DNA from: a virus | DNA length: 64,000 bases | Direction: 5' to 3' (one strand) | Virus record (IMG/VR): IMGVR_UViG_3300045988_167643 | Shown: in pieces, positions 2,672 through 59,215 of the stretch | How the letters are laid out: the number at the start of each line of letters is the position of its first letter | Numbering within the stretch: the stretch's first letter is position 1 | Notes under the pieces: model-generated | What the model was told of the DNA's origin: nothing | Database searches by the model: none | The model's input: only the letters and a program-made list of their open reading frames with translations | Translations under genes and position numbers: made by a program

Positions 2672-3480
2672 CAAACAGACTTCCTAGCATCTATGATGAC
2701 GAAACAGTTTACAGCTGGTTCTGTAGATATCTTATAAGTAGCGGTATATGGAGAGAGCATGAGATTGCAAAAGAACTATTTGTAAACAGTACAAATGTTA
2801 TTAGTAAATTATTTATTGGAAATATTAATAAAGATACCGAAAATAATATTGAGAAAGTTATATCAATAGAAAATCTGTTAAAACATCATACAATGTTTTA
2901 TGTTTATACAGGGTATTGTTCAAATGACTATGCTAATGAATTCCTTTATAATTTAAAAACGGACTGCTATAAAACAGAGCTTAATATAAGAAGACCACGT
3001 AGCGAAAATAGACAATTGAAATATTGTCCAATGTGTATTATTGAGGATCGTAAAAAATATGGAGAAGCATATTGGCATAATATACATCAAATACGAATGT
3101 TACCGATATGTCCTATACACAAGTGCAAATTGCATAATAGTGAAATACGTTATATTGGTTATGGAAGAGTAAGAGAAAAATTATCTCCACTAGAAATGAT
3201 GAATCTTAACTCTGATGTAGAATATAACACAAATGAAATGCTTGATAAAATAGTTGAATACGCAATTGACAGGTATTATAAACAAGACATAAAAGATATT
3301 GGTATTGATTATTTGTCGATTAGAAAAGAAAATTGGGGATTAAGAAGTAACATAATTAGTTTTTATAAAAAACATGGAATAAATTTTTGCGGTAAAGAAA
3401 TAGACTCAATGGTATATGACAATAGAAAAAATTTTTATACAATGAGTGCCATATATTATTATTTAAAAATATGCCATTAA
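2668..3480 (+). CDS. tniQ: TniQ-family target-selection protein
   Basis: The N-terminal LPSIYDDETVYSWFCRY is TniQ-like and there is a CPMC...CPIHKC zinc finger. It is the third gene of the translationally coupled trio. Confidence 0.7.
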   Translation: MTNRLPSIYDDETVYSWFCRYLISSGIWREHEIAKELFVNSTNVISKLFIGNINKDTENNIEKVISIENLLKHHTMFYVYTGYCSNDYANEFLYNLKTDCYKTELNIRRPRSENRQLKYCPMCIIEDRKKYGEAYWHNIHQIRMLPICPIHKCKLHNSEIRYIGYGRVREKLSPLEMMNLNSDVEYNTNEMLDKIVEYAIDRYYKQDIKDIGIDYLSIRKENWGLRSNIISFYKKHGINFCGKEIDSMVYDNRKNFYTMSAIYYYLKICH

Positions 3481-27500: not shown

Positions 27501-29522
27501 GAGAGATGAGATACGAAGTTTTAAAAAATACTGATCATCTTTATCGAATGAGAGATGGATAAAATTACCTATATCAAAATTTCCTTGCCATTCTTTAAAT
27601 CCAGGAATAGCAAAAATGTTATCCATTGTAAGAGTGAATGATAATTGTGGCTGACACACCTTAGAAAGCTCTGTTGTTGCATCTTGGAATAATTCGTATT
27701 GAGTATTGATTATCTCTGCAGCAGTGTTTGTAGAAATGGTGATAATATTATCATTTACATAATCTGTCTCATTGTACAGTTTATTTAATGTTTCAAGATC
27801 TTCCTTTGTAAATATGCCGCATTTTTCTTTATTGTTAATTGTTGCAACTTCGGACATATTTTTTGAAAAACCATTCATTAAATTCTGAATATCATCATAT
27901 TCGCCTTGTCTTTGCTTAATGGCACCAGAGCATCCACCTTTTTCTGGTTCCGCATATAAGTTCCCATTTTCATCTTTTCCGTATTCGTATTCCCAATACT
28001 TCAAATACTTATTATGAGAAATATTATAATTGGACTCTGTTAAGTGACCTTTTTCATCTTCACTTAAATCTTTCCATGCCTTTTTATAAGCTTTTAAAGC
28101 ATCAATATTATTCAGATATGTTTTCTCTTTTGTTTTTAACTCTTGAAGACCAAACAGATCCCAATTTGTATTCCATTCTTCAATCAAATCATCTACTTCA
28201 TTGGACTTTTTATCATCCTGTGTAGGATCTGTATTATTTTTATATTCAATGGTTTTGTCGATAATTTCAAGAATACCCTGATATGCAATATAATCTTGCT
28301 CCGCACCTTTATTAAGCCACTTCTGGTTTTTTTCATCCCAGTAGCCAAGATTCACATCTTTCAGTGCATCCATATATGTAGTATACTTCTTTTTAATAGT
28401 TCCAAGGTCTTTTACGGTAAATTGTTTCCAATTATTATTCAACCCATCATTCGGAACTCTAAGATTGATTTCATCACGCTTTTCCATATATAAGCTGTAC
28501 TGACGATTGTAATACATGTATTTTTTACGTGCTTCGTCAAGCTTAGATAACCATTGATTATATCTGTCAATTAACCCTTGACTTACATGTTTTGTACTAA
28601 GATAATAAGAAAGATTCTCAATAGTAGAAGAACCAAAATTGACTGCATCAATTGTAAGGTCATCTCCACCACGTACTTCAAATCTTGTCATAATATTATC
28701 TTCTTGAGCTGGTGCATAATTCAACGTCTGAATCAAATTACGATAAGAGATAAATACATTTGAATCCTTACCGTAATCTTTTACGCTATATACATTAATT
28801 GTCCTGGTCATAATATTAAAATCGAAAATACATTCGAATTTCTTTGATACATCCTGCGTTAGAAATGCATATACATTTTTTGAGTCTATATCAAATGACC
28901 GCTTAGAATCAACCATTTGTGAAGTAGTAGTAACAGTTCCATCATCGTTTACTTTAGTCTCTATAACCGTTGTTTCTCTTATTGTCTGATCAACCCAACC
29001 AATTTTCCATCCAAAAACCTTTTCAATTGCAATATCAAGCAATGAAAAATCTTTGTACAGTTCATCATATAAAATAATGTTTTTAACTGCTACTTTAACA
29101 CCTTCATCGGTTTCTTTTACATTGCCATTAATCAAATATTCACGGCTGTCTGTCTCTCCGGTATTAATCTTAAAGTTTTTTAGGGTTTTTAATGCAAGTT
29201 CGCATTCGCATGATTGTGCAGATACTGATTTATATTCATCAAATCCATCATTTGAAACTTCCGGATAGGACATACGAAAATATCCAATTCCATCAACAAA
29301 TATGTACATTGCCTCGTCAAGCATGTCATATCCATTAGATTCTTCGCCGTTCACATATCTATGCACATCAAACTGGATAGTATCAAAATTATTAAGCTGT
29401 TTCGTATAACTGACAGATTGAAGATCAATTCCATTCAATTCACAGATTATTGTATTATCTGTTTTGCATAAATAAAAACGAGCCGGTTCAGCAAGCCCAA
29501 AATAGTCGTAATTAAAATTCAT
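24504..29522 (-). CDS. tail-associated (Tal / prophage-tail-endopeptidase-like) fibre protein with C-terminal S74 chaperone domain
   Basis: The start ATG at 29522 (MNFNYDYF) is preceded by GGTAGGTG and overlaps the Dit stop (TAATG). It sits after Dit. The C-terminus SDRRLKRNIKNT...FIWKE...GYIAQELEDINPNMV plus coiled coil is S74-like. Repeated GDIIANSLTLG and GTIYA motifs are present. Confidence 0.8.
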   Translation of the reverse strand: MNFNYDYFGLAEPARFYLCKTDNTIICELNGIDLQSVSYTKQLNNFDTIQFDVHRYVNGEESNGYDMLDEAMYIFVDGIGYFRMSYPEVSNDGFDEYKSVSAQSCECELALKTLKNFKINTGETDSREYLINGNVKETDEGVKVAVKNIILYDELYKDFSLLDIAIEKVFGWKIGWVDQTIRETTVIETKVNDDGTVTTTSQMVDSKRSFDIDSKNVYAFLTQDVSKKFECIFDFNIMTRTINVYSVKDYGKDSNVFISYRNLIQTLNYAPAQEDNIMTRFEVRGGDDLTIDAVNFGSSTIENLSYYLSTKHVSQGLIDRYNQWLSKLDEARKKYMYYNRQYSLYMEKRDEINLRVPNDGLNNNWKQFTVKDLGTIKKKYTTYMDALKDVNLGYWDEKNQKWLNKGAEQDYIAYQGILEIIDKTIEYKNNTDPTQDDKKSNEVDDLIEEWNTNWDLFGLQELKTKEKTYLNNIDALKAYKKAWKDLSEDEKGHLTESNYNISHNKYLKYWEYEYGKDENGNLYAEPEKGGCSGAIKQRQGEYDDIQNLMNGFSKNMSEVATINNKEKCGIFTKEDLETLNKLYNETDYVNDNIITISTNTAAEIINTQYELFQDATTELSKVCQPQLSFTLTMDNIFAIPGFKEWQGNFDIGNFIHLSFDKDDQYFLKLRISSLTFNPCVIENNFQIEFTNMISYNGGRDDFAVLLDNTVSTAKDQITESVKSKLDTSGIEVSDALIKAMVSSTRFSNAVSNGVFDTINANTGAFGQVISKMVNARDMMANSGLFETINVDATTSKLVLALDINATRISAGTLSVDRLIIRGEKNSIMYSFNESLGAVESKNIPPEDYDKYYMGGKNIQAHTITADQILANSLTASEITTDDLRGINGWINLHSGTFTFYGKSEKVIIDDINKDKKLLDNYISSWESPRGTSGDDLRYKESMSFSPIGLNQEKLKSKIEELKPYTTDSSEVLTTLQKSTLIRFLGELDNYIIWLNVNDKIYKENKSASTLNQMTRTDLEKEFGINTLSDAERTTKYNLIKNYVGIKEASEEDNSAGLMAWNGQTLTVRGDIIANSLTLGKNVNISSENISDLKNYVTTSGLDEKLKDYTTTSDMQNEGLAFIVKKNGSIGQFDGTINPDDTKGYFSVNTDGLMIAQNAVVYGTIYAKAGKFTGDIIANSLTLGDGVDISTDKISGLGEYAKSSDLNGYVRTVDLEPYAKTESLSVYFEKDKDYGTIVDGQTGIKVSTNGLLQASNAIIYGTIYASSGWFKGELKAATGTFSGELKAATGSFSGNITASTGSIGPWNINSDAIYKGSGYNIGGPGNAYFGNSGLSISDKFIVDSEGNMTATDATISGTITASSGKIGLFNISNDGSIYNKPYGTAGSGSDSCGLSVTSGKYAFWAGSGAFYVNQDGSMHCSNADILGGITSKGNNTITELRNGQLSMKYDYGISDVEPLPKLLMGLDGNNEPYLYFYSVAPYTSVSISGGIIRGTLNGNVTGDVSGNVNGYIINSESTSYRPAICTSTDDGGKYYVSIIRTNVDNKITIRGKWDYQKFETRTFQLTTSDRRLKRNIKNTNIDNALSQILKINHREFIWKESNNYIDLGYIAQELEDINPNMVIKPSESNEPYGVNTFYMESLITKSIQEMYAELKAENKQLKQRIEYLEQQIN

Positions 29523-30469
29523 TAATAGGCACCTACCTTTCTTGGGCATCTGAATGTCATTTTAATACTGCATCCACCTGTTATTTTAAATTTGTTTACA
29601 CCAGGAACTAACCTAACCCAATATAATTCCAAACTACCATTATCTAAATTTGTAAGGTTGTCAGATGTAAACCCAAGATCGGATAATTGAACCGGAATAT
29701 TCTTTTTCTTTGTATTACTGTAATAATAAATTTTATGATTTTTTGAATCTATATAAAGTGGATTTGTGTAATCAATTGCATTTGGAATTGTAAGAGTAAG
29801 ACTATGACTTAATAAATCATTAGTAGAAATTTCGGAATAATTATCAATTGTAATTTGCGTACCTGCATAAGAATAAATTGCTATTAACGGATATGTAAAA
29901 TCACCAATCTCATCTGTATCATTGTTCACTTCAAATAATTCTGCGTTTTGAATTGTTACCTCAACATTTTTATTGTTTACAGATACATTTTTATCATTTA
30001 CTGCAAGTAAACAATTCTCTAAGTTGTTATAAGCAAACTCACGTTCGTTACTCCATCCATATGGAGAATCTGCAGTAAATGTATACGTAAGCATTAAAAT
30101 ACCACTACCATAAACGTTAGTTACATCTGTAAATACTCCATAATAATTAATAGGGTCAAAAGCTTCATCTTCAAAAAATAGAAGAGTAGGTGTACGTGGT
30201 CCTGTTAACCAGGCGTTTATATCTCTAACTTCTTCTCTTGAAAAAGCACGATTTTCAGGTTTGGTAATTGTTACTTCAAATGTAAGTACATCTGAATATT
30301 TTGTATTATACCAATTTGATACAGGTCGTCTGCTTGTAATTTCACCTTTTAAAATTTCTCTTGTTAATCCCATTGGAATTGATTCTGGCTGTTCAGAGGC
30401 ACAAATAATAACTCCAAAATCATCGGAAGATTTTCCGTTATATGTAAAAGAAGAGCCAAATATAGCCAT
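29522..30469 (-). CDS. distal tail protein (Dit)
   Basis: The N-terminus MAIFGSSFTYNGKSSDDFGVII is typical of siphovirus tail-family proteins. It lies between the TMP and Tal. The start ATG at 30469 follows AAAGTAGGTG. Confidence 0.7.
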   Translation of the reverse strand: MAIFGSSFTYNGKSSDDFGVIICASEQPESIPMGLTREILKGEITSRRPVSNWYNTKYSDVLTFEVTITKPENRAFSREEVRDINAWLTGPRTPTLLFFEDEAFDPINYYGVFTDVTNVYGSGILMLTYTFTADSPYGWSNEREFAYNNLENCLLAVNDKNVSVNNKNVEVTIQNAELFEVNNDTDEIGDFTYPLIAIYSYAGTQITIDNYSEISTNDLLSHSLTLTIPNAIDYTNPLYIDSKNHKIYYYSNTKKKNIPVQLSDLGFTSDNLTNLDNGSLELYWVRLVPGVNKFKITGGCSIKMTFRCPRKVGAY

Positions 30470-30500
30470 ATTAATCACCTACTTTCTATTCAGACTATTA

Positions 30501-30529
30501 TTGACAAAAATTATTACTTGAATCATAAT
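30501..30529 (+). promoter_or_regulatory. sigma-70-like promoter TTGACA-17-CATAAT
   Basis: It has a consensus -35, a 17-nt spacer and a near-consensus -10. It lies 40 nt upstream of the plus-strand gene embedded in the minus-strand operon. Confidence 0.6.
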
Positions 30530-30569
30530 GGATTTTATATATAGATTTGTTTGAAGGATGGGAGAGAAG

Positions 30570-31112
30570 ATGAGTCTAGTAATTGCTGCAATCTCAAAAG
30601 ATAATGATATTATTGTATGCGCTGATTCCAGAATTGTGGATAAAAATGGTAATATAGTTACCGAAAACGAGAATAAAATTTACCAGATTAGTGATAGAGT
30701 TGTTATTGGTTATGCTGGCAGTAAAAATGATTTTGATTGCCTTAAGGTATACTTAGAAATTAAATCAATACTATTAGATATAAATGATGTAGAATGTATA
30801 TACGAAGAAGTGAAAAGTTATGAAGAAAATCATGCATCAAATGATGGAATTCATTTACTTATTGCAGGATTTAATAAGTGTGAAATACCACAAATATATC
30901 TTGTAGGTACTGAAAAACATGAATGTGGTATCAGTAGACTATTATCTACAGACTATATGGCGATTGGTGATTATGGTTTTGATCTTTCTCTAAATACTCA
31001 AAAAGAGCTGACTGAAATCATATGTGATATGAAAATAATAATAAGTAATAGAGCAGAAGTGAATAATGGTATAAATACAAATATTAATACAGTTATTTTA
31101 AAGTCCAAATAA
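30570..31112 (+). CDS. HslV/CodW-like Ntn-hydrolase (proteasome beta-type) homologue, copy 1
   Basis: The N-terminus MSLVIAAISKDNDIIVCADSRIV...NKIYQISDRVVIGYAGS parallels the remembered HslV [21 protein letters not shown]...KVRRLYNDKVIAGFAGG. Ser follows the initiator Met, as in B. subtilis CodW. The later MAIGDYG resembles AIGSGG. The ATG at 30570 was preferred for RBS spacing and agreement with the paralogue. Confidence 0.55.
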   Translation: MSLVIAAISKDNDIIVCADSRIVDKNGNIVTENENKIYQISDRVVIGYAGSKNDFDCLKVYLEIKSILLDINDVECIYEEVKSYEENHASNDGIHLLIAGFNKCEIPQIYLVGTEKHECGISRLLSTDYMAIGDYGFDLSLNTQKELTEIICDMKIIISNRAEVNNGINTNINTVILKSK

Positions 31113-31295
31113 TCCACCTGGATGACCGCAAAAGTGATATTTGCCTTTTATAAAAAGCCAATCAAAATATTCTTTTACATCCTGTGGAGAAAGTGATACT
31201 TTACTATAAAAACTACTTATTTCTTTGCCATTATGGTATTCTATAATTTTATAATTACCTATTATAAATGTATGATCAAAAATTTTAACATGCAT
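31098..31295 (-). CDS. small protein, family B (MHxKIFD...), convergent and overlapping with Ntn-hydrolase gene
   Basis: The start was refined to MHVKIFDHTF (RBS AAAAGGAC). Its 3' end overlaps 30570..31112 by 15 nt. It shares FxWLFIxxK...GxxGG with 31321..31512 and MHxKIFD with 41853..42053 and 44726..44935. Confidence 0.6.
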   Translation of the reverse strand: MHVKIFDHTFIIGNYKIIEYHNGKEISSFYSKVSLSPQDVKEYFDWLFIKGKYHFCGHPGGLFGL

Positions 31296-31320
31296 AATTA
31301 GTCCTTTTATTACATAAAAA

Positions 31321-31512
31321 TTAACATATTGTTCCACCATGTGCTGTTCCAATAAATTTATCATTAATAAATAACCATTCAATAAAATTATTTACATCAG
31401 TTGGATTTATTCCATTGCAGCATGACATACCACCAACATATTTTTCGTTTTCATATAAACGTATAGATGTATTATTTATTTTTAGCTTAAAATTAAAAAA
31501 ACTTACTTCCAT
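31321..31512 (-). CDS. small protein, family B paralogue
   Basis: RBS AGAGGTAATAATTATG. FIEWLFINDKFIGTAHGG aligns with YFDWLFIKGKYHFCGHPGG in the neighbouring gene. Confidence 0.6.
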   Translation of the reverse strand: MEVSFFNFKLKINNTSIRLYENEKYVGGMSCCNGINPTDVNNFIEWLFINDKFIGTAHGGTIC

Positions 31513-31534
31513 AATTATTACCTCTGTTCAAAAT

Positions 31535-31562
31535 TAATAAAAGAGAGCATAGCTGTGACACT
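31535..31562 (-). terminator. rho-independent terminator after TMP
   Basis: On the minus strand, GAGGGCATAG-tgtcacag-CTATGCTCTC is followed by TTTTATT. Confidence 0.7.
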
Positions 31563-31576
31563 ATGCCCTCCTGTGT

Positions 31577-39685: not shown

Positions 39686-39692
39686 ATTGAAA
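39685..39692. repeat. 8-bp direct repeat AATTGAAA (island left junction)
   Basis: Identical to 47240..47247. Both copies read xT-TTC-AAT-Tx (Phe-Asn) in the same codon phase on the minus strand. Confidence 0.85.
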
Positions 39693-39747
39693 TAATCTAT
39701 TTATAATGTTATACTTGCAATATAAAATTATAAATTGGAGGGTGATT

Positions 39748-40275
39748 ATGAAGATTTATTGCTGTCGTAATTGTATGGAGAAAAACAGAAGCAAGATTAA
39801 AAGCGACAAAGATTATTTTAACTCATTACTTAAATATAAAACCTTTGAAGCAGAAAAAGAATATTTTGTAGGATTTGGACTAGAAAACAAAGTTAAAGAC
39901 GGTAAATGTATATTTTGCAACTCTCCAGTAGAACTTTTAAATATTGAGGATGGTGAATTGGCAAAAATATCACACTTTGGATCTCCAAATCCAGATTATG
40001 TTCTTGCTATGAATAAACTTAAAGGCGATGATATTATTTCATTTACTTCAAAATATAATGAATTAATTGAGATTCAAAATCAAAGAAAAGCAATGAATTT
40101 AGCGCAACAACAGTCCGAGCAACAAAATATAAACCAAGTACGTTGTCCTAAATGTGGATCTACCCAGATCACCACAGGACAGAGAGGATACAGTTTATTC
40201 TCTGGCTTTTTAGGTAGCAGCAAGACCGTTAATCGTTGTGCGGCTTGTGGACATACTTGGAAGCCTGGAAGGTGA
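39748..40275 (+). CDS. double zinc-ribbon protein (Zn-ribbon cassette copy 1 in frame)
   Basis: RBS GGAGGGTGATTATG. The N-terminus has CCRNC...CIFC. The C-terminus is [40 protein letters not shown]. Confidence 0.75.
40135..40275 (+). repeat. 141-nt Zn-ribbon cassette, copy 1 (in frame)
   Basis: It has the same length and the same [13 protein letters not shown]...NRCAxCG pattern as 41186..41326, 43280..43420 and 44153..44293. Confidence 0.9.
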
Positions 40276-40485
40276 CTATAAATAGTTCTTTCGATCATCA
40301 AGAATATCAAACAGTTCTTGAATGTTTTTTTCAAATTCTATAAAGCTTAGATACTTTTGATGATTGAATATTCTATAGTATGCTTTTTGGATTTTAAATT
40401 TTATATTGCGAATTGCCATTTTTGCATCCAAATAAAAAACATTTACTCTTAATTTTAGAAGTAATAAAGTTTTATTTTGTTTCAT
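40276..40485 (-). CDS. small protein, family C (~69 aa), divergent partner of HExxH gene
   Basis: RBS GAAAGGA. It shares K(K/A)YY(R/K)IF(N/D)xxKY...EK(D/N)(I/M)Q(E/D)...D(D/E)R with 42104..42316 and 42344..42550. Confidence 0.65.
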   Translation of the reverse strand: MKQNKTLLLLKLRVNVFYLDAKMAIRNIKFKIQKAYYRIFNHQKYLSFIEFEKNIQELFDILDDRKNYL

Positions 40486-40518
40486 ATAAATAAAATCCTT
40501 TCGTATAAGTAAATAAAT

Positions 40519-41202
40519 ATGAATAAAGAATATATAGAAAATTTATTTAAAGAATACAATAATAATTATTTTAAAATACCAGAAATACAGCAATATATCG
40601 AAATACAAGATAATTATGTAGCTGGTAAATTTAATAGTGTAGATTTATACAATCAAATATATACATTAGAAATAAGTAATAATTTAAATGAGTCTGATGG
40701 AAGCAAAGCAATATTATTCCATGAATTTACTCATGTATATGATTCGTTACAATTTCTAAAATATCCATTTGAAGATTACAAAAAATTAATGTATGTATAT
40801 TCGGAAGTACATGCTTCTGAAGTAGAAATGGATGTGTATTTAAAAATATCAAACTTTCATTATGAAAAATATATGCAATTACAATTAAGAGACCTAATAG
40901 AAAGCTTTATTTTGCCAGATGGTCCTATTGTCAAAGGACAGCTAGGATTTAATGAAAGACTTCTATATTATTACATTGGTTATCTTGTATCATTAAATAA
41001 TCATAATATTAAGTATGAATATAAATATGATTATATTAATGAAGATTTTCAAAATCTGTTTATGGAAATTACAGATTACTTTATTCAAAACAATACATAT
41101 AATTATGATATCTTATTAACTTACTATGATAGATTGAGTAAACTTGTAAAAGATACATTAATAAAACATCAAAAAAAATACAAATCAAGTTCGTTGCCCT
41201 AA
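40519..41202 (+). CDS. HExxH metallopeptidase-like protein, copy 1
   Basis: Contains [12 protein letters not shown] (HExxH) and [11 protein letters not shown]. It is roughly half-identical by eye to 42580..43266. It ends 17 nt into the +1-frame Zn-ribbon cassette. Confidence 0.65.
41171..41178 (+). repeat. A8 homopolymer at HExxH/Zn-ribbon junction
   Basis: The sequence reads CATC-AAAAAAAA-TAC. Loss of one A fuses the HExxH ORF to the Zn-ribbon (…[16 protein letters not shown]…). Confidence 0.9.
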
Positions 41203-41326
41203 ATGCGGTTCCACACAAATCACCACAGGTCAACGTGGATACTCATTATTCTCTGGTTTCCTTGGCTCAAATAAGACAGTCAACAGATGTGCGAATTGCG
41301 GATATTCTTGGAAACCTGGAAAATAA
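41186..41326 (+). other. Zn-ribbon cassette copy 2, +1 frame relative to upstream ORF, no own start codon
   Basis: It encodes [46 protein letters not shown]. Against copy 1, 22 codons differ synonymously and 5 non-synonymously. Its frame opens at 41165 with no ATG, GTG or TTG. Confidence 0.8.
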
Positions 41327-41338
41327 GGAGAGTATAAT

Positions 41339-41890
41339 ATGAGTATTATACTGGCTGCTATTTCAAAAAATAATGATATTGCTGTATGCTCCGATGGAAG
41401 AGCAACTGATAGTAATGGAAAAGTTGTAGGAGAGTATGAGCAAAAAATATATAAAATTAATAAGAAATGTATAATTGGTGGGACTGGAACTGCTGCTAAA
41501 TATCTAAAATTAAAAGATTATGTTAAAGATAATTTTTCATCAGACCAATACAATGTGAATCAAATCCACGACTCATGCATTAAGTATTTAGAAAAAAATA
41601 AATCTGACGAATCAGATGTACATATTCTTATTACTGGGTATGATGAAGAATGTAATCCACACTTGTATGTAATATCTGTATCCAGTACTATTTCATCTCG
41701 CGATTACAATGATATAAAAAGAACTATATTAGGCGATGTATTTTGCAATTATATACTTAATGAAACCGAAGATGACATCAATAAAATTTTAGATTCCATG
41801 GAAGAATGCATTATTAATAGAGCAATGTTTCATTTTTTAATTAACAAAAATGTTAGTAAATTGCATCTTTTGGCAAAGGATGTTCGATGA
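41339..41890 (+). CDS. HslV/CodW-like Ntn-hydrolase homologue, copy 2
   Basis: RBS AAGGAGAG. The N-terminus MSIILAAISKNNDIAVCSDGRATDSNGKVVGEYEQKIYKINKKCIIGGTGTA follows the HslV pattern. It is a paralogue of 30570..31112. Confidence 0.55.
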   Translation: MSIILAAISKNNDIAVCSDGRATDSNGKVVGEYEQKIYKINKKCIIGGTGTAAKYLKLKDYVKDNFSSDQYNVNQIHDSCIKYLEKNKSDESDVHILITGYDEECNPHLYVISVSSTISSRDYNDIKRTILGDVFCNYILNETEDDINKILDSMEECIINRAMFHFLINKNVSKLHLLAKDVR

Positions 41891-42053
41891 GTCTTTTTTC
41901 AGGAACAAAAAATGATTCAATAGTTTCTTTTACTACAATTGGTTTAAGTGGAATATATTTATTACAAGTGACTGATTCTTGTCCATCGTTATCAGATACT
42001 GATATTTTGTGCGAATCAATAAATATGTCACAATCAAAAATTTTAGCATGCAT
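41853..42053 (-). CDS. small protein, family B, convergent and overlapping with Ntn-hydrolase gene
   Basis: The start was refined to MHAKIFDCDIFIDSHK (RBS AGAAGGT). It overlaps 41339..41890 by 38 nt. Its 5' 53 nt are about 92% identical to 44883..44935. Confidence 0.6.
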   Translation of the reverse strand: MHAKIFDCDIFIDSHKISVSDNDGQESVTCNKYIPLKPIVVKETIESFFVPEKRLIEHPLPKDAIY

Positions 42054-42103
42054 TGTCATACCTTCTTTCTATATATTGTAGAATAAGTGGAACAAGTAAA
42101 TAA

Positions 42104-42316
42104 CTATAATCTATTCATACGTTCATCGTATTCATTAAATATTTCTTTGATGTCTTTTTCGAATGCACAAAGTTTTTCGTATTTGGAATAATTGAAAATT
42201 TTATAGTATGCCTTTTTTACCTGTAAAATGAAATTTTTCTTTTTCATATTTAAAGAAAGTAATAATGCGTCTATTTTTAAGAGTATTAATGAATGCTGTT
42301 TTATTTGTTTTTTCAT
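42104..42316 (-). CDS. small protein, family C paralogue
   Basis: The start was refined to MKKQIKQ (RBS AAAGGA). It carries the family C motif KKAYYKIFNYSKY...EKDIKEIF...DER. Confidence 0.6.
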   Translation of the reverse strand: MKKQIKQHSLILLKIDALLLSLNMKKKNFILQVKKAYYKIFNYSKYEKLCAFEKDIKEIFNEYDERMNRL

Positions 42317-42343
42317 AGAACATCCTTTCATAAGAAAAGTAAT

Positions 42344-42550
42344 TTACACCCATTTCATTCTGTCGTCAATAGCATCCAGGACATCTTGCATATCTTTTTC
42401 TATCTGCAGGAGGTCCTGGTACTTTTGATTATCAAAAATGCGATAATACTTTTTTTGAATTGCAAATTTTATATCTAATTTTAGATTTTTTAATTTTATG
42501 AACAGTATATCACGTTTTAATCTAATAATTAGCATTTTGTTTTTTATCAT
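42344..42550 (-). CDS. small protein, family C paralogue, divergent partner of HExxH gene
   Basis: RBS GAAAGGAATTATTATG. Only 29 nt separate it from the divergent 42580 start. Confidence 0.65.
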   Translation of the reverse strand: MIKNKMLIIRLKRDILFIKLKNLKLDIKFAIQKKYYRIFDNQKYQDLLQIEKDMQDVLDAIDDRMKWV

Positions 42551-42579
42551 AATAATTCCTTTCTATTGCAGGAGATAAA

Positions 42580-43266
42580 ATGGACAAAGAGTATCTTGAT
42601 AAAATATTTAAGGAATATAATGAGTTATATTATGAAATTCCAGAAATACAAGAATATATTGAAGTTGACAAAGGAGATTGTGCAGCCGCACAATTCAATA
42701 CATTGGAATTGTATAATCAAAAATATATACTAAAAGTCAACAAGCAATTAGATAAATCAAAAATATACAAAGGAATTTTCTTTCACGAGTTCACACATGT
42801 ATATGATTCTACTCAGTTATTAAATTATCCGCTTGAAAATTTTATTAAATTAATGTACATATATTCTGAAGTTCACGCTTCAGAAGTTGAAATGGATATA
42901 CATTTAAAAATAGAAAATTTCTCATATAAAAAATATGTAGATAAAGGAATAGTAAATTTAACTGAGAGTTTTATATTACCAAATAATCCTATTTTAAAAG
43001 GTGAGGTATATTGTGACGAAAGACTTTTATATTATTGTATTGGATATTTGACATCACTTAAAAAGCATAATATCGAATATGTTTATAGTTATAAGTATGT
43101 ACCAGATGTGTTTCGTTCATTATTTATAGAGATAACGGAATATTTTTTGTCAACAACAAAATATAATTATAATGTATTGCTTAATTATCAAATTAAATTA
43201 CATGATTTAGTCAAGACTACAATAAAGGAACATATAGAAAAATATAATAAACCTAATACAAATTAA
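42580..43266 (+). CDS. HExxH metallopeptidase-like protein, copy 2
   Basis: RBS GCAGGAGATAAAATG. Contains [12 protein letters not shown] and [11 protein letters not shown]. Confidence 0.65.
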   Translation: MDKEYLDKIFKEYNELYYEIPEIQEYIEVDKGDCAAAQFNTLELYNQKYILKVNKQLDKSKIYKGIFFHEFTHVYDSTQLLNYPLENFIKLMYIYSEVHASEVEMDIHLKIENFSYKKYVDKGIVNLTESFILPNNPILKGEVYCDERLLYYCIGYLTSLKKHNIEYVYSYKYVPDVFRSLFIEITEYFLSTTKYNYNVLLNYQIKLHDLVKTTIKEHIEKYNKPNTN

Positions 43267-43279
43267 TACAAAAACCAAT

Positions 43280-43420
43280 ACTGTTCACTGTCCTCGCTGC
43301 GGTAGCACACAGATCACTACAGGGCAGAGAGGTTATTCCTTTTTAACTGGTTTCTTAGGTTCCAATAAAGCTGTTAATAGATGCGCAAAATGTGGACATA
43401 CTTTGGAACCGAGAGGGTAA
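43280..43420 (+). other. Zn-ribbon cassette copy 3, +1 frame relative to upstream ORF, no own start codon
   Basis: It encodes [46 protein letters not shown]. Its frame is open from 43238 without a start codon. The junction contains the tandem AATACAAA-tt-AATACAAA. Confidence 0.75.
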
Positions 43421-43421
43421 T

Positions 43422-43691
43422 TTATTTAATACCATGTTCTTCCAAAAACTCATCAGCTATTTGACTAGAAACTTGTTTTATAATTTGAGTAAGATTACCA
43501 TGAACGTCAATTTCCGGCATCTTACCAGTTGTTTCGAATTTAATAATGTCATCAATTGACATATTCTTAAAATGATTTCGCACTAATGTAAATGTGGTTT
43601 CAATATCACCTTCATCAGTACAATTATTTTCGTATAACAATTTAATAATTTTTGTTGCAATATTTTCTGTCTCAGAAATTGACCACAACAT
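43422..43691 (-). CDS. hypothetical 89-aa acidic protein, divergent partner of 43723..44154
   Basis: RBS AGAAAGGTCGTG. Its start lies 31 nt from the divergent gene's start. Confidence 0.6.
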   Translation of the reverse strand: MLWSISETENIATKIIKLLYENNCTDEGDIETTFTLVRNHFKNMSIDDIIKFETTGKMPEIDVHGNLTQIIKQVSSQIADEFLEEHGIK

Positions 43692-43722
43692 ATTTTCACG
43701 ACCTTTCTATGGAGGATTGAAT

Positions 43723-44154
43723 ATGATATTAAACTATGATTGTTTTAGAGATGTACTCTTATATATTGAAGAACAAGATAATATGAAGCTTAATGGAGAT
43801 TTCAAGCGGATTATGTTAAAAGATATAAAGGATCACTTTTCAGGCAAATACACTGAAGAGGATGTACAATATTGTGTGAAAAACTTATTTGACGGAAGAT
43901 TCTTAGAAGGATTGTATTCTATAGATGATAACTATAAATATGAAAACTGTAAAATTTATGATGTTACATTCGAAGGACATAAATTAGCAGAATCAATTAG
44001 ACCTGACTCTATATGGAGGAAGAGTAAAGCTAAATTAAAATCTGTAGGTATTTCTTCTATAAATATGATCTCAGCAGTATGTGTAGAAGTTGCTAAAGTA
44101 GCTGTTACTGATCCTAAATTTATTACCGATATTGCCAATGGAATATTTAAATAA
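43723..44154 (+). CDS. DUF2513-like (winged-helix-like) protein
   Basis: RBS GGAGGATTGAATATG. The N-terminus MILNYDCFRDVLLYIEEQ...F resembles the remembered DUF2513 family. The track start at 43594 lies inside the divergent gene. Confidence 0.5.
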   Translation: MILNYDCFRDVLLYIEEQDNMKLNGDFKRIMLKDIKDHFSGKYTEEDVQYCVKNLFDGRFLEGLYSIDDNYKYENCKIYDVTFEGHKLAESIRPDSIWRKSKAKLKSVGISSINMISAVCVEVAKVAVTDPKFITDIANGIFK

Positions 44155-44293
44155 AGTTCACTGTCCTCGCTGTGGCTCAACGCAAATTACCACAGGTCAA
44201 ACCTTGCAAAGAGCATTGTTTAGCTTAATGTATAATCAGATTACTGTCAATCGATGCGCAAATTGTGGGTGCACTTGGAGACAAGGAATATAA
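44138..44293 (+). CDS. Zn-ribbon cassette copy 4 as possible 51-aa stand-alone ORF (+1 frame, overlaps upstream stop)
   Basis: An ATG at 44138 lies in the cassette frame but has no SD. It encodes [51 protein letters not shown]. The central loop has diverged. Confidence 0.45.
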   Translation: MEYLNKVHCPRCGSTQITTGQTLQRALFSLMYNQITVNRCANCGCTWRQGI

Positions 44294-44307
44294 GGAGATT
44301 ATATAAT

Positions 44308-44466
44308 ATGGAAGAAAACATATTTGATAAGTTTAAAAATGTGGTTCGTAAGCCGAAACCAGAACCAACTAAGCCAAAGGCAACTAAAATTTCTGATATT
44401 AATTTAGAAAAGAATAAACGAGAAATTTTTACTCTCCATGACGAAAAAGATAAAAACAAGAAGTAA
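44308..44466 (+). CDS. 52-aa Lys/Pro-rich peptide
   Basis: RBS TAAGGAGATTATATAATATG. The sequence is highly basic and low-complexity. Confidence 0.5.
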   Translation: MEENIFDKFKNVVRKPKPEPTKPKATKISDINLEKNKREIFTLHDEKDKNKK

Positions 44467-44607
44467 TACATTTTTTTAAAAAATCTATTGTTTTTATATA
44501 TGGCGTAAAGAAAAGTTCAATAGCATGGGGAAATGGATCTGGAACTTCTCTAAACAATTCTATATCTTTTATTTTTAAATCTTCTGTGTCATTAGGAGGT
44601 GTATTTA

Positions 44608-44808
44608 GTGAACTCAAATTTCGATTCAAAAGAATCATTCCTTTCTTATAAGTTAAATATTTTTAAAGAATTGTATAATGATGAATGTGAAAGAAGAAAC
44701 ATTGCTTCACAAAAAATTTCAAGAATTATTCCATTAATTGTGGCAATGTTTGGTGGTGACACCAATATTTTTCAAAAGCTTTTTCTGGCAACAGATAATC
44801 CTCTATGA
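44608..44808 (+). CDS. 66-aa ORF, possibly a truncated N-terminal fragment
   Basis: A GTG lies 8 nt after AGGAGG. It ends inside the convergent gene 44726..44935, in the position the Ntn-hydrolase gene occupies in the paralogous module. Confidence 0.35.
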   Translation: MNSNFDSKESFLSYKLNIFKELYNDECERRNIASQKISRIIPLIVAMFGGDTNIFQKLFLATDNPL

Positions 44809-44935
44809 CTTCCTTGACAAAGAAAGTAGGCAAGGGAGTATTAAAAGATTTTTCACTAGATCCACCACGAGAATCGTTTATTGATATTTTGTGTGAATCA
44901 ATAAATATGTCGCAATCAAAAATTTTTACATGCAT
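44726..44935 (-). CDS. small protein, family B paralogue
   Basis: The start was refined to MHVKIFDCDIFIDSHK (RBS GAAGGTGAAG). Confidence 0.6.
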   Translation of the reverse strand: MHVKIFDCDIFIDSHKISINDSRGGSSEKSFNTPLPTFFVKEVIEDYLLPEKAFEKYWCHHQTLPQLME

Positions 44936-44983
44936 AAAAATCTTCACCTTCTTTTTTTATTTAATTAATAGACCAAGAGAGTA

Positions 44984-45331
44984 TTAGTGCTCTTGGTCTG
45001 ATTCTTCATGCTTGGTCCATGCTAATGTATAAGTTTTTAACCAAAAGTAATCTTTACCGAAATCACCATCAGACCGATATATATCAAATTCATTTATATT
45101 ATAAATACCTAATGTCTCATACATGGCATCACGGTATGTCTTATAAGATCCAAGAACCTTATTATCATCTTTTCTTATTACTAGATAACAATCTCCGTAT
45201 TTTTCAAATAATTCTTTCTCGTGGTCTGTAAAATAGCAGTGGGCTTTACCATCTCGATCTGTTGACATATTAGTATAATTAAAGAAATCTTTATCTTCAA
45301 ATATAACAGTTCCTCTTTGTATTAATTTCAT
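44984..45331 (-). CDS. small protein, family A paralogue
   Basis: RBS AAAGGAGT. FEKYGDCYLVIRKDDNKVLGSYKTYRDAMYETL aligns with the family A members. Confidence 0.65.
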   Translation of the reverse strand: MKLIQRGTVIFEDKDFFNYTNMSTDRDGKAHCYFTDHEKELFEKYGDCYLVIRKDDNKVLGSYKTYRDAMYETLGIYNINEFDIYRSDGDFGKDYFWLKTYTLAWTKHEESDQEH

Positions 45332-45375
45332 TTAATAATACTCCTTTTTAATCATAATAATAGACCAGGAGAGTG

Positions 45376-45846
45376 TTAATTCTCCTGGTCTAAATTATCA
45401 TATTCATTTAAGAAATTTGCTGTTCCAAAAGATGGGATTCTAAATGAAAAACTTGTTTTTCCATTTAAATTTGATACTGCAAAATCACCTTTTGAAATAA
45501 TATCCATACCAATAATAATATCAAAAACATCATGTTTTTCAATTTTTAATACTCGCAAGTTATTAAAAACAAAATCGTCTCTAAACATTAAATCAATTGA
45601 ATAAATATTTGTTAATTTTGACTCACGATGACCTCCAGTATAGAAATTTGATTTTCCAGTTGAAGTAAGATTATATTTTTCCACTATATTGCTTGTTATA
45701 CATGAGACAGAAGCACCTGTGTCCCAAATACAAATAAAGCGATTTTTATCAATTAAATCATCTTTCTCTTTTCCTACATAAACATAGGAAGTAAGTTGAT
45801 TCATTATCTTATTTGAACTATATGTAAGAACTCGTATTTTATCCAT
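45376..45846 (-). CDS. retropepsin-like aspartic protease, copy 2
   Basis: Contains IWDTGASVSCIT, IIGMDIISKGDFAVSN and FSFRIPS. Its start lies 4 nt after the upstream family A gene's stop. Confidence 0.75.
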   Translation of the reverse strand: MDKIRVLTYSSNKIMNQLTSYVYVGKEKDDLIDKNRFICIWDTGASVSCITSNIVEKYNLTSTGKSNFYTGGHRESKLTNIYSIDLMFRDDFVFNNLRVLKIEKHDVFDIIIGMDIISKGDFAVSNLNGKTSFSFRIPSFGTANFLNEYDNLDQEN

Positions 45847-45849
45847 ATC

Positions 45850-46140
45850 TTATTCACTTATAGAAATCCATTTATATTCTGGTATGCGAACATATTTTCT
45901 ATTAAAAACACCATCACAATGATATATATTAAATTCACCTACATCATAATAGAAAAGTGTTTCTCTTAATGCTTCTCTATATGTTTTATATGATCCAATG
46001 ATAATATTATCTAATTTTCTAATAGACAGATAACATTCTCCATATTTTTTATATAATTCTTCATGATGATAATAAAACCAATCTGTAGGATGATTTGGAA
46101 TTTCTACAATTTCCCCTTCATAATAATGTATTTTTCCCAT
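45850..46140 (-). CDS. small protein, family A paralogue
   Basis: The start was refined to MGKIHYYEG after AAGAGGTG. Contains YKKYGECYLSIRKLDNIIIGSYKTYREALRETL. Confidence 0.65.
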   Translation of the reverse strand: MGKIHYYEGEIVEIPNHPTDWFYYHHEELYKKYGECYLSIRKLDNIIIGSYKTYREALRETLFYYDVGEFNIYHCDGVFNRKYVRIPEYKWISISE

Positions 46141-46187
46141 ATTAAATTTCACCTCTTATCATATCATATAATGGATTAATTTCAATC

Positions 46188-46224
46188 TATATAAATAAAA
46201 GCACCACGTTTGCAAGCCGTGGTG
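46188..46224 (-). terminator. rho-independent terminator ending the ORF-poor RNA region
   Basis: On the minus strand, CACCACG-gcttgcaaa-CGTGGTG is followed by CTTTTATTTAT. Confidence 0.7.
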
Positions 46225-46681
46225 AGTGTGTGCAGTTAGTGCATTTCAGGTAGTAGGAGAGTAGTAACCTCACGGTTCTATCCATACTATTCGATCCATC
46301 ATGCTACCCAGGCTTTCCCTGGTTGGACTGTATATTGTACTATATGTTGTAACGCCACACATAATACGCCTTGTCAGCCTCTCGCACGTTAACTGTAAAA
46401 CTACACTTTTACATGAAAACACATATGTTCTGGATTTACAAAAATGGACAATTATACTACAATCGAAGTCAGATAAACTTGTGATCACAGTTCTACATTG
46501 TGATTCGTTGCACGACAGTATATCTGACAATCGTCATGTAGTATTGAATTAATGGTACGCAATTTGTACCAGAAATGAGATTATCTAAAATGAAGCATTC
46601 TAAATATTATATTCATTTCTATGGGATTCTCCCAACATCAAATCTCTTTCTTGATACTTTCGTACAGGAAGGAGGTGAGAT

Positions 46682-46855
46682 ATGGAAGATGTATTTCTAT
46701 TCGTTTTAACTCTTGTAGGATTATTAATCCTATGGTCGTTAATCCGCAGAATACCATCTAAGAACATGAAAAACTTTCACATCCATTTTGGATTTTTGAA
46801 AGGATTTGACATGTCTGGAGAATTCTATAAGGATGACACCAAAAATAATAAATAG
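46682..46855 (+). CDS. 57-aa hydrophobic-N-terminus peptide (type-I-toxin-like)
   Basis: Strong RBS GGAAGGAGGTGAGATATG. It encodes MEDVFLFVLTLVGLLILWSLIRRIPSK..., a TM helix followed by a charged tail. Its own terminator lies downstream. It is below the ORF-track cutoff. Confidence 0.55.
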   Translation: MEDVFLFVLTLVGLLILWSLIRRIPSKNMKNFHIHFGFLKGFDMSGEFYKDDTKNNK

Positions 46856-46892
46856 TTTAGTTCATATTTTTGTAATCTCCTTTTGTCATTTA

Positions 46893-46945
46893 AGAGAGTG
46901 GAGAGTTGTTAGCGCAACTTTCTGCTCTCTATTTCTTTCTTTCTT
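46893..46945 (+). terminator. rho-independent terminator of the small peptide gene
   Basis: AGAGAG-tg-GAGAGTTG-ttagcg-CAACTTTC-tg-CTCTCT is followed by ATTTCTTTCTTTCTT. Confidence 0.7.
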
Positions 46946-47219
46946 CCTGTTATAATTGCGTTTTATTCGTGAATTTATCATCCACTTTTGTAAATTTAAA
47001 CATATGTGTTTGCTAACGTGTCGGAACTACCATCTTCAATATATCCCTTTCATTCATTTTCAGAACTAAGGTACCACAGTGATGTGGATTACGGCTTCCT
47101 CCGATATTCGGCTTTATAGCTCTAAGGCTAAAGGTCTGTCAATAGGTGTCGAATCACCATCTTGAACAAGTTCTATACTAACTGTCGCGATTATGACAGC
47201 AGCATATCAAATGGGCATC

Positions 47220-47234
47220 TTAACTACGATAAAA
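47220..47234. repeat. 15-nt inverted-repeat arm (TTAACTACGATAAAA) at island right end
   Basis: It is the reverse complement of 39664..39678. It supplies the codons FYRS* that terminate the proximal TMP segment. Confidence 0.9.
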
Positions 47235-57770: not shown

Positions 57771-59215
57771 CGGAACGATTGCCTTAAACTGGCTCTCGGT
57801 GGAAGTGGAGTAATACCTTATGTTACTTTTACAGTTCGTTAAGCTGCAAAAGAATTATTTACATAGCGTGAAATATAAACTTCATATTTTCTTTTTAAGT
57901 GAATTGTGGAATTGTTGTAAATGTAATCTAAAAATATTTTAGTATTATGTATATTATTAATTTTTAAATCACAAGTTATATCATTATATTTATAAATTGT
58001 AGATTCAATATTTAAAGTATCATATAGAACATCTTTTAGCTTATATAAAAACATGCAAGTACCTGTTAAAGAAACTCTATTTCGTGTTTTTATAATAGAT
58101 CCATCACCATCTAAATAACCTCGAATTAAATGCGGAAGCAAATTATTAGATACCCATTCTGGGTACTCTAATTTAAGACTTTTCTGATTAACTATTCCTA
58201 AATTCCGAAGTTGATTTGCCATATATTTATTAACAATAGAAAGTTTGTATTGATTTTTATATGTAATTTTCTTCTTTTTCATATTTATAGGCTTTATTGG
58301 TCTATTACTACCTAATAATGAGTTTATTTTTTCCAAAATGTATTTATCATCTTCTTGGAGACTTATTGATATGGTGTTTTTGTGAACACATCCATCTGCC
58401 ATTAATAATCCAATAATATAAGCTTTTTCTTGATTGTCTATTTCATCAAAATAATGCTCATTTAAAGTATATTTTTGATTAAATTTTTCCGATCCAATTA
58501 TTTCAACATTATTTCTTTTTAGTATTTCAGAAACCGTTGATTGGCTAATTTTATATTTTTCTGCAATTTTATGTATTGGCAATGGTGAAAGATAATCATT
58601 AATGATATCTTTTTCATCAATATCAGATACTTTTGTTCTGGTGTGAATTCCATTTTCTAATAATAATCTACCTATACTTCGTGACGGAACATTAAATTTT
58701 TCTGCTATAATTTTCAATTGCATTCCACTTTTTTGTAGTTCAACAATTTCATTAAAATGTTTTTTTAATTCTTGTTTATATTTCCCTGAGTACATAATAA
58801 ATTCCTCCAAAATTTTTCATATGATAAATTGCAGTAATTGTGCAATTGGAGGTTGCAACAAAATGGGAGCTACCCACTGTCCTGCAATATTATCTTCTCA
58901 ATTAGTAAATAATTTTTCTCATAAAATGAGAGCTGACTATATCTTCACCATGCCTTGCGGTTTAGGTGCTCTCCGTTTCGAACACTTGTCCTACATAAAT
59001 AGTCGATGAGCCTTATCCTATTCGGATCTTGGTTGCTGATTGTCCAACACTTGTAATTTTCAAACATTCACACTTGATCGTATTTCATATCTATGTTGTA
59101 GTTTACAAATTTCATACAGATTTCCAGCAGTTAAAAGAGATTCACTGCATAGTTTCCAAATGCAGTGGACAATTACTTATCGGTCCAGAGGCCGCTGTTG
59201 TACGAGGATTGTGTC
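57771..59215 (-). mobile_element. group I intron with LAGLIDADG endonuclease (splice sites approximate)
   Basis: R element CAUCGACUAUUUAUG lies at 58994-59008 and S element GAAGAUAUAGUCAGC around 58932-58947. P7 pairs GACUAU with AUAGUC. Several perfect hairpins are present (ACGAGGA/TCCTCGT, CACTGCAT/ATGCAGTG). The region outside the HEG is ORF-free and GC-richer. Confidence 0.75.
57839..58795 (-). CDS. LAGLIDADG homing endonuclease with N-terminal HTH repeats
   Basis: Two LAGLIDADG motifs are present: YIIGLLMADGCV and LIRGYLDGDGSI. The start was refined to MYSGKYKQ, 8 nt after GGAGG. Confidence 0.85.
   Translation of the reverse strand: MYSGKYKQELKKHFNEIVELQKSGMQLKIIAEKFNVPSRSIGRLLLENGIHTRTKVSDIDEKDIINDYLSPLPIHKIAEKYKISQSTVSEILKRNNVEIIGSEKFNQKYTLNEHYFDEIDNQEKAYIIGLLMADGCVHKNTISISLQEDDKYILEKINSLLGSNRPIKPINMKKKKITYKNQYKLSIVNKYMANQLRNLGIVNQKSLKLEYPEWVSNNLLPHLIRGYLDGDGSIIKTRNRVSLTGTCMFLYKLKDVLYDTLNIESTIYKYNDITCDLKINNIHNTKIFLDYIYNNSTIHLKRKYEVYISRYVNNSFAA

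Follow-up and report, generated by a model that had tools for sequence, protein, structure and literature searches.

A 64,000-nucleotide stretch of viral DNA (IMG/VR record IMGVR_UViG_3300045988_167643, hereafter the window) carries two paralogous genes for proteasome-like hydrolases of the N-terminal nucleophile (Ntn) type, here called PSH1 and PSH2 (proteasome-like Ser-Ntn hydrolase, copies 1 and 2). By sequence and predicted structure, the encoded proteins share the fold of 20S proteasome beta subunits and the catalytic residues, with a serine directly after the initiator methionine in the place of the nucleophile. In a lineage of large phages they occupy two sites, one at either end of a giant tail gene, where they are exchanged as cassettes. 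We consider it probable that they are accessory, partner-independent serine Ntn peptidases, predicted to be active, which serve in conflict with the host or with competitors.

The two open reading frames (ORFs; coordinates in Table 1) had been singled out in a reading of the sequence alone, and their paralogy and placement were borne out. PSH1 and PSH2 align over their full length with 33% identity (E = 7e-22). PSH1 lies antisense between a 2702-amino-acid (aa) ORF resembling a tape-measure protein (TMP) gene and a Dit-type gene of the DUF6558 family, and PSH2 lies within an island of ~7.5 kb that separates the TMP-like ORF from a PhageMin_Tail fragment. Both copies have Ser after the initiator Met, as had been claimed, with the start of PSH1 taken at 30570. 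An alternative in-frame ATG at 30558 would prepend MGEK to this protein. The start at 30570 is favoured because of the spacing of the GGGAGAG motif in front of it, and because the upstream ATG is missing or out of frame in PSH1 orthologues. The ratio of nonsynonymous to synonymous substitution rates (dN/dS) among these orthologues is 0.1–0.37, which indicates, at the level of codons, functional proteins under purifying selection.

Profile searches and structure prediction agree on a proteasome-type Ntn fold, as had been proposed. Against the Pfam Proteasome family (PF00227, gathering cutoff 22.4 bits), PSH1 scores 34.8 bits (E = 1.7e-8) and PSH2 45.7 bits (E = 7.5e-12). The AlphaFold2 model of PSH1, built from an alignment with 33 homologues (pLDDT 90.1, pTM 0.88), runs through strands S1–S5, helices H1 and H2 (predicted at residues 52–65 and 74–88), four strands, a long helix and a last strand, which is the order of a proteasome subunit. 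When this model was compared with the PDB using Foldseek, the top matches were all 20S subunits, mostly beta (probability 1.00), with TM scores of up to 0.79 against archaeal and mammalian 20S beta chains. With a Pfam score above threshold, an alpha-beta-beta-alpha fold, the nucleophile in register and equivalents of the catalytic Asp, Lys and Gly, the window proteins belong to the proteasome-like family. About a dozen phage proteins among predicted viral structures have the fold of PSH1, none of them close (identity ≤16%, TM ~0.6). The best PHROG for both copies is 36497, a profile of 199 positions listed with unknown function (E = 4.6e-6 over residues 5–127 of PSH1 and 2.3e-11 over residues 5–148 of PSH2; PHROGs have no curated threshold), and phrog_1040, ‘peptidase HslV family’, is a weaker match. 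An exhaustive profile search yielded 322 clusters (50% identity) at E ≤ 0.001.

Conservation at individual residues was read from 128 full-length relatives, chosen to start with Met-Ser, Met-Thr or Met-Cys. Lys36 and Gly50 are invariant in this set (128/128), position 19 is Asp in 113 and Glu in 14 (together 127/128), and Arg21 is present in 122; Glu32, Gly100 and Asn169 are further conserved positions specific to the family. Position 2 is Ser in 119 and Thr in nine, within a set preselected for such starts. In an unselected set whose alignments reach the start of the profile, 154 of 176 relatives have Met-Ser and 19 Met-Thr at positions 1 and 2, and two have an N-terminal extension followed by Gly|Thr, at which proteasome subunits classically process themselves. 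The spacing from Lys to Gly is 14 residues in 127 of the 128, equal to Lys33–Gly47, and that from Ser to Asp is 16 residues in 88, equal to Thr1–Asp17, and 17 in the clade of the window. In the profile of the wide family, position 4 pairs with residue 3 of mature yeast beta1, which makes Ser2 the equivalent of Thr1. The alignments thus support a correspondence of Ser2, Asp19, Lys36 and Gly50 with Thr1, Asp17, Lys33 and Gly47. If the narrow window clade is aligned without gaps to mature beta1, Leu3 rather than Ser2 stands opposite Thr1, a pairing that we attribute to a clade-specific insertion of one residue in the S1–S2 hairpin. A reading of Ser2 as a Gly(-1)-like position was rejected, as the wider family has the canonical spacing and Met-Ser or Met-Thr starts. 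The N-terminal nucleophile and the Asp17 and Lys33 equivalents of the sequence-only reading are therefore in register, and the Ser2 and Lys equivalents are conserved among homologues (Met-Ser or Met-Thr in 173/176; Lys in 128/128).

Methionine aminopeptidase removes the initiator Met when Ser or Thr is the second residue. The window proteins have no propeptide, and the host enzyme would be expected to remove Met1 and so expose Ser2. The hydroxyl and free amino group of this serine, together with Asp19, Lys36 and Gly50 at the oxyanion position, would then form a catalytic centre of the proteasome type, in which Ser2, Lys36 and Asp19 would catalyse peptide-bond hydrolysis. It is likely that the protein oligomerises, as other members of the proteasome family do.

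The label ‘HslV/CodW-like’, under which the genes were first noted, did not hold. There are points of likeness: typical HslV (ClpQ) genes encode the nucleophile directly after the initiator Met, Bacillus subtilis CodW is reported to use an N-terminal Ser, and the proteins are small and of similar length (179 aa for the matched HslV chain, 4hnz_A). However, the HslV equivalog hidden Markov models of NCBIfam give 17.6–19.9 bits (TIGR03692, cutoff 157.75) and 17.0–18.8 bits (NF003964, cutoff 137), far below their cutoffs, and the archaeal beta model outscores them on the window proteins. The family profile likewise matches 20S beta chains at E = 2e-11 and the best HslV chain at 2e-7. On these scores PSH1 and PSH2 are not orthologues of HslV or CodW, and 20S beta is closer. 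It is accordingly highly improbable that they are true HslV/CodW-type subunits that recruit a host HslU or CodX unfoldase. The weak matches to HslV models, phrog_1040 and 4hnz would speak for such a role, as would the annotation of a relative in Roseburia phage Jekyll as ‘HslV-like’, but the family signatures Glu32, Asn169 and Ser1 differ from HslV and there is no HslU nearby. On this last point the earlier reading was right: a scan of the 64 kb window for ORFs with a Walker-A motif left TniB as the sole ATPase-like ORF, another match, inside a 2430-aa tail protein, being taken as chance. No AAA+ gene was found within ±10 kb of homologues in related contigs.

With 20S beta subunits the window proteins share the fold, a mature N-terminal nucleophile, the Asp/Glu17–Lys33–Gly47 spacing and the best profile match. 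They differ in having Ser for Thr, a Met-Ser start, no propeptide and no alpha-subunit partner, in being encoded by phages, and in length (180 aa, against ~190–230 aa for the matched mature beta chains). Moreover, Ser129, Asp166 and Ser169 of the proteasome are not conserved as such in the family, which has its own Glu32 and Asn169.

Phage-borne relatives of the proteasome are not new as a kind. A survey described some 20 new prokaryotic proteasome-like subfamilies (Fuchs, Alva and Lupas, 2021; PMC8665760), of which PPH, AAH and CPH are phage-borne and FC1–FC5 are five Firmicute clusters, given as Firmicutes only and not as phage. These subfamilies lack propeptides, and the authors found neither a linked AAA+ partner nor a functional clue (PMC8665760). 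The window family resembles PPH, AAH, CPH and FC1–FC5 in having no propeptide and no AAA+ partner and in being carried or spread by phages. Membership of PPH was ruled out: PPH proteins have ~140 residues and no helix H2 (PMC8665760), whereas PSH1 and PSH2 have 180–183 aa with both H1 and H2 predicted. The published description thus sets the window family apart from PPH; it could coincide with AAH, CPH or one of FC1–FC5. The premise of the sequence-only reading that proteasome-type peptidases were not recognised as recurrent phage genes falls in the face of PPH, AAH and CPH (PMC8665760), of the PHROGs and of the Jekyll annotation. When the literature was searched for work on the function of phage proteasome homologues, only mentions in catalogues or annotations came up. 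What is new is the two-site architecture of the paralogues, the exchange of cassettes through codons of the nucleophile strand, a small convergent gene linked to them, and the size of this family of Ser-first phage proteins.

The fold need not imply proteolysis. Connectase, an archaeal proteasome-like enzyme that works alone, without an unfoldase, and has Thr/Ser as its N-terminal nucleophile, acts as a ligase (PMC8665760). The window proteins resemble it in standing alone and in their nucleophile, and might be ligases or transpeptidases like it, small-molecule amidohydrolases or dead scaffolds; the lack of conservation at Ser129, Asp166 and Ser169 and the lack of an unfoldase would fit. We think a non-proteolytic use very unlikely. 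H1 and H2 are missing from connectase, which carries an insertion of two helices between S3 and S4, whereas in the AlphaFold2 model the opposite is seen on both counts, and near-absolute conservation of the Ser/Thr1, Asp17, Lys33 and Gly47 equivalents argues against a dead scaffold.

The arrangement of the genes was followed by mapping the window proteins onto 20 related loci (L001–L020). At the first site (site A), one proteasome-like gene separates Dit from the 3′ end of the giant TMP-like gene and runs antisense to both, and the site is occupied wherever this junction is visible (L001–L004, L009, L013–L015 and L019). At the second (site B), the island adjoining the 5′ end of the TMP-like gene holds a proteasome-like gene, again wherever that end is visible (L001, L004–L008, L010–L012, L016–L018 and L020). 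Directly upstream of this gene there is usually a zinc-ribbon gene, or else a remnant duplicated from the 3′ end of that gene. The zinc-ribbon protein has PHROG 2546, of unknown function, as its sole database match, and C-terminal remnants of it were matched by tblastn in L005, L011 and L016. The window, L001/L004 and two IMG/VR contigs show both sites at once, and each carries both genes. The three genomes that have both sites in view, the window among them, each keep two diverged copies.

The occupants of the two sites are not fixed. In L014, L015 and L019, Dit is 98% identical to that of the window and the site-A protein only 32%, and genes of the PSH1 type (82–88% identical to copy 1) are found at site B in L010–L012. 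Identity between the window and L015, followed in a sliding comparison, falls into three zones: 98–100% up to ~30610 (about codon 16 of PSH1), ~20–60% from there to ~31500, and 93–100% again from the end of the TMP gene onward. From these zones we conclude that the body of the gene is swapped together with the small gene or genes behind it as a cassette. In this comparison one junction of the cassette falls inside the ~50 nucleotides that encode the invariant MSLVIAAISKDNDII nucleophile strand. Seventeen N-terminal residues are identical between clades that are ~30% identical overall. Synonymous sites in that stretch vary between these clades, which argues that it is the MSLVIAAISKDNDII peptide that is under selection, and the conserved DNA of the nucleophile strand can still, on this evidence, act as a recombination arm. 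The gene body and the small convergent gene would then be replaced as a unit by homologous recombination, with the junction in the 5′ ~50 nucleotides. Exchange of cassettes with a junction in catalytic-strand codons suggests diversifying selection, and such a pattern is typical of genes in host–phage or phage–phage conflict.

Copy 1 had also been credited with a consensus promoter of its own. The site is there: TTGACA-17-CATAAT is the best promoter-like match of the region (11/12), and it is kept in the related phages L001, L013 and L015 ahead of differing alleles of the cassette. Promoter-like sites are not in excess in this AT-rich DNA (19, against 16.9 ± 4.4 in shuffled sequences), and a promoter function for this one is plausible on its sequence and conservation. 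PSH1 would then have a host-type promoter to itself and be read in the direction opposite to the late tail operon, and would therefore act outside tail assembly.

Across the lineage a small convergent gene (65–73 aa) overlaps the 3′ end of each proteasome-like copy. The window has four paralogues of this family, recognisable by the motif MHxKIFD, and the PSH1 type is always paired with the type designated sm65a, at site A or B. One of the four is an orphan (44726..44947); in L001 and L004 a proteasome-like gene precedes its orthologue (95% identity), and the ~570 nucleotides to the left of the orphan (44155..44725) hold no trace of a decayed third copy. The AlphaFold2 model of the small 65-aa protein has four strands and a helix (pLDDT 77), and no match was found in Pfam, PHROG or NCBIfam, nor a fold match in the PDB at E < 0.5. 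This small protein could be a cognate partner of the peptidase. Taken further, the two products could form a toxin/inhibitor-type pair, a module for abortive infection or superinfection exclusion whose small partner restrains the protease or mediates its action. The overlap and joint travel of the genes, the constant pairing of PSH1 with sm65a, and the position of the Jekyll homologue beside a toxin-antitoxin pair, a putative restriction endonuclease and an integrase are all consistent with such a module. We nevertheless regard it as unlikely, as the small gene lies on the strand of the tail operon and may be a mere late gene, has no homologue beside family members outside the lineage, occurs once as an orphan, and is without a PADLOC, Pfam or fold match.

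All genomic contexts recovered for the wider family are phage. Close relatives are found on contigs from human-gut metagenomes and IMG/VR, mostly of 160–260 kb and with the same tail module; the IMG/VR relatives lie on contigs of 96–213 kb and one of 15.7 kb. More distant members are placed directly upstream of the small terminase gene (terS), after a replication/recombination module, or near HNH and resolvase genes. In an unrelated phage, the gene of another member, P0199, has a TMP-like gene (1699 aa) on one side and a DUF6558 Dit gene on the other, and all three run in the same direction. In the temperate Roseburia phage Jekyll (45.6 kb), the homologue (VUE37436.1, annotated ‘protease, ATP dependent, HslV-like’) is flanked by a putative restriction endonuclease and by the integrase, with a toxin-antitoxin pair in the neighbourhood. 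It has 185 aa and the family signature MSL...SDGR...K...G...VN, but low identity to the window copies, and its gene is beside an integrase and not in a tail module. Jekyll was reached with a more central family member (P0087) as query and not with PSH1, tblastn of which gave no match among phage records; nor did megablast of positions 28000–44000 of the window match any INPHARED phage. Searches of the GTDB species representatives with profiles A4 and A1 returned no relative and no sign of an integrated prophage.

The main rival to a role in conflict is that these enzymes are tail-maturation proteases, which would process the giant TMP or some other protein of the tail as it is assembled. Cleavage of the tape-measure protein is known from several siphophages, both copies stand at the ends of the 2702-aa TMP-like gene in every member of the lineage examined, and P0199 is placed between TMP and Dit in an unrelated phage. 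Against this, the genes of this lineage lie on the strand opposite to the tail operon, and copy 1 is preceded by a sigma-70-like promoter sequence of its own. Furthermore, alleles of 32% identity interchange while the adjoining Dit is 98% and the TMP flank 93–100% identical, and other members of the family are found before terS, beside an integrase and in replication modules. We judge tail maturation to be quite unlikely. The reading that we prefer, an accessory gene in an arms race whose peptidase would target proteins of the host or of competitors, perhaps together with the small neighbour as its cognate partner, draws on the allelic replacement, the antisense orientation, the varied positions elsewhere (including the lysogeny- and defence-type neighbourhood in Jekyll) and the protease-rich island at PSH2.

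Several observations weigh against this preferred reading. PADLOC gave no defence-system match for either copy or for six neighbours, P0199 on the tail-gene strand would fit a tail-related role too, and the small gene is not conserved beside family members outside the lineage. With respect to catalysis, the window clade has Gly133–Asp134, and the family Asn169 and Glu32, instead of the proteasome residues Ser129, Asp166 and Ser169, and Ser is reportedly a poorer nucleophile than Thr in T1S mutants of the 20S proteasome. Finally, the window is part of a genome of ~200 kb, and an ATPase partner could lie elsewhere in it.

A bolder form of the preferred reading is that the genes, along with their small neighbours, are diversifying specificity cassettes of an unfoldase-independent serine proteasome, which would destroy host immune proteins or proteins of competing phages and gain new specificities through recombination in its invariant nucleophile-strand codons. 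This is rather doubtful. If true, it would give a viral proteasome homologue its first function and add a class of protease for anti-defence or exclusion that is new; serine proteasomes that need no partner would also bear on how catalysis proceeds without Thr1, a propeptide or an unfoldase. Neither the phage proteasome homologues nor the ~20 prokaryotic subfamilies of 2021 have an assigned function, and this locus is a tractable one: its proteins are small and, as predicted, probably active, their modelling is confident, the nucleophile Ser2 is defined, and nature supplies an allelic series at two fixed sites along with a candidate partner gene.

Table 1. Features of the window, in order of position (numbered from its first nucleotide).
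Feature	Position	Strand	Remarks
Mu-transposase C-terminal/rve	58..1443	+	
TniB/AAA_22	1436..2671	+	
TniQ	2668..3480	+	
DUF6558 Dit-type gene	29522..30478	-	Pfam
Sigma-70-type promoter-like site TTGACA-17-CATAAT	30501..30529	+	upstream of PSH1; 11/12 matches
Shine-Dalgarno-like GGGAGAG	30560..30566	+	3 nucleotides before ATG 30570; read from sequence
Proteasome-like Ser-Ntn hydrolase copy 1 (PSH1)	30570..31112	+	180 aa, begins MSLVIAAISKDNDIIVCADSR; Ser2, Asp19, Arg21, Lys36, Gly50 conserved
Exchangeable site-A cassette	30615..31500	.	PSH body from ~codon 16 and small minus-strand genes; window vs L015
Small convergent gene, 65 aa, MHVKIFD...	31098..31295	-	overlaps 3′ end of PSH1
Second small paralogue, 63 aa	31321..31512	-	between PSH1 and TMP gene end
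Strong terminator-like hairpin, 13 pairs and T-run	31541..31572	-	directly after TMP stop; right-hand site-A cassette junction
Tape-measure-like ORF (TMP), 2702 aa	31577..39685	-	
Zinc-ribbon protein, 189 aa, several CxxC pairs	39706..40275	+	upstream of site-B gene in related phages
Duplicated 3′ end of zinc-ribbon gene	41207..41326	+	immediately upstream of PSH2
Shine-Dalgarno-like GGAGAG	41327..41332	+	6 nucleotides before ATG 41339; read from sequence
Proteasome-like Ser-Ntn hydrolase copy 2 (PSH2)	41339..41890	+	183 aa, begins MSIILAAISKNNDIAVCSDGR; Ser2, Asp19, Arg21, Lys36, Gly50
Small convergent gene, 68 aa, MTMHAKIFD...	41853..42059	-	overlaps 3′ end of PSH2
Gene of 89 aa, divergent from DUF2513 gene	43422..43691	-	
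DUF2513 protein	43720..44154	+	Pfam 57.5 bits; PHROG 585
Orphan small MHxKIFD gene	44726..44947	-	no adjacent proteasome-like gene
Retropepsin-like aspartyl protease, 156 aa, DTGA motif	45376..45846	-	Pfam Asp_protease_2, 32.1 bits vs 24.3
PhageMin_Tail fragment, 289 aa	47220..48089	-	
LAGLIDADG_3 homing-endonuclease-like protein	57839..58810	-	N-terminal helix-turn-helix motifs

The island that holds PSH2 (window 39700..47200) has features of its own. TMP function looks split, with the 289-aa PhageMin_Tail fragment and the 2702-aa ORF on either side of these ~7.5 kb, which carry small genes on both strands and differ in content between otherwise near-identical phages. Two paralogous modules (40276..41202 and 42344..43266) each pair a plus-strand gene, coding for an HEFTH (HExxH) protein of 227/228 aa, with a divergent gene of 68–69 aa ahead of it, and a third small paralogue lies at 42104..42331. 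The first module appears to have been inserted between the zinc-ribbon gene and PSH2, with duplication of the zinc-ribbon 3′ end. The HExxH proteins have no match in Pfam, PHROG, PADLOC or PDB. The aspartyl protease gene is flanked by paralogous genes of 100/115 aa (44984..45331 and 45850..46152), and the TMP region thus encodes predicted peptidases of three catalytic classes (aspartyl, two HExxH and two proteasome-like). The DUF2513 gene and its 89-aa neighbour form a mobile pair, which is found directly upstream of the site-B proteasome-like gene in L005 and L010–L012.

The conserved right arm of the island (46194..47220) is ~1 kb without a long ORF, except for a hydrophobic one of 57 aa with a good ribosome-binding site (46682..46855, plus strand). 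Despite variable neighbours it is 96–99% identical in seven related loci and 88% in L005 and L006, and its GC content reaches 46%, against 22–30% in the flanks. It contains a hairpin with a 17-bp stem (46893..46930) and, on the minus strand, a terminator-like hairpin near 46205–46235. There is no Rfam match to this region, Rfam and tRNA scans of the whole window being empty, and five of 314 predicted pairs covary, the variation being too low for a test of structure. This stretch may specify a large non-coding RNA or have a regulatory role. At the other end of the window, the three consecutive transposition genes in Table 1 make up a Tn7/Tn5053-type module (58..3480, plus strand) within this large phage genome.

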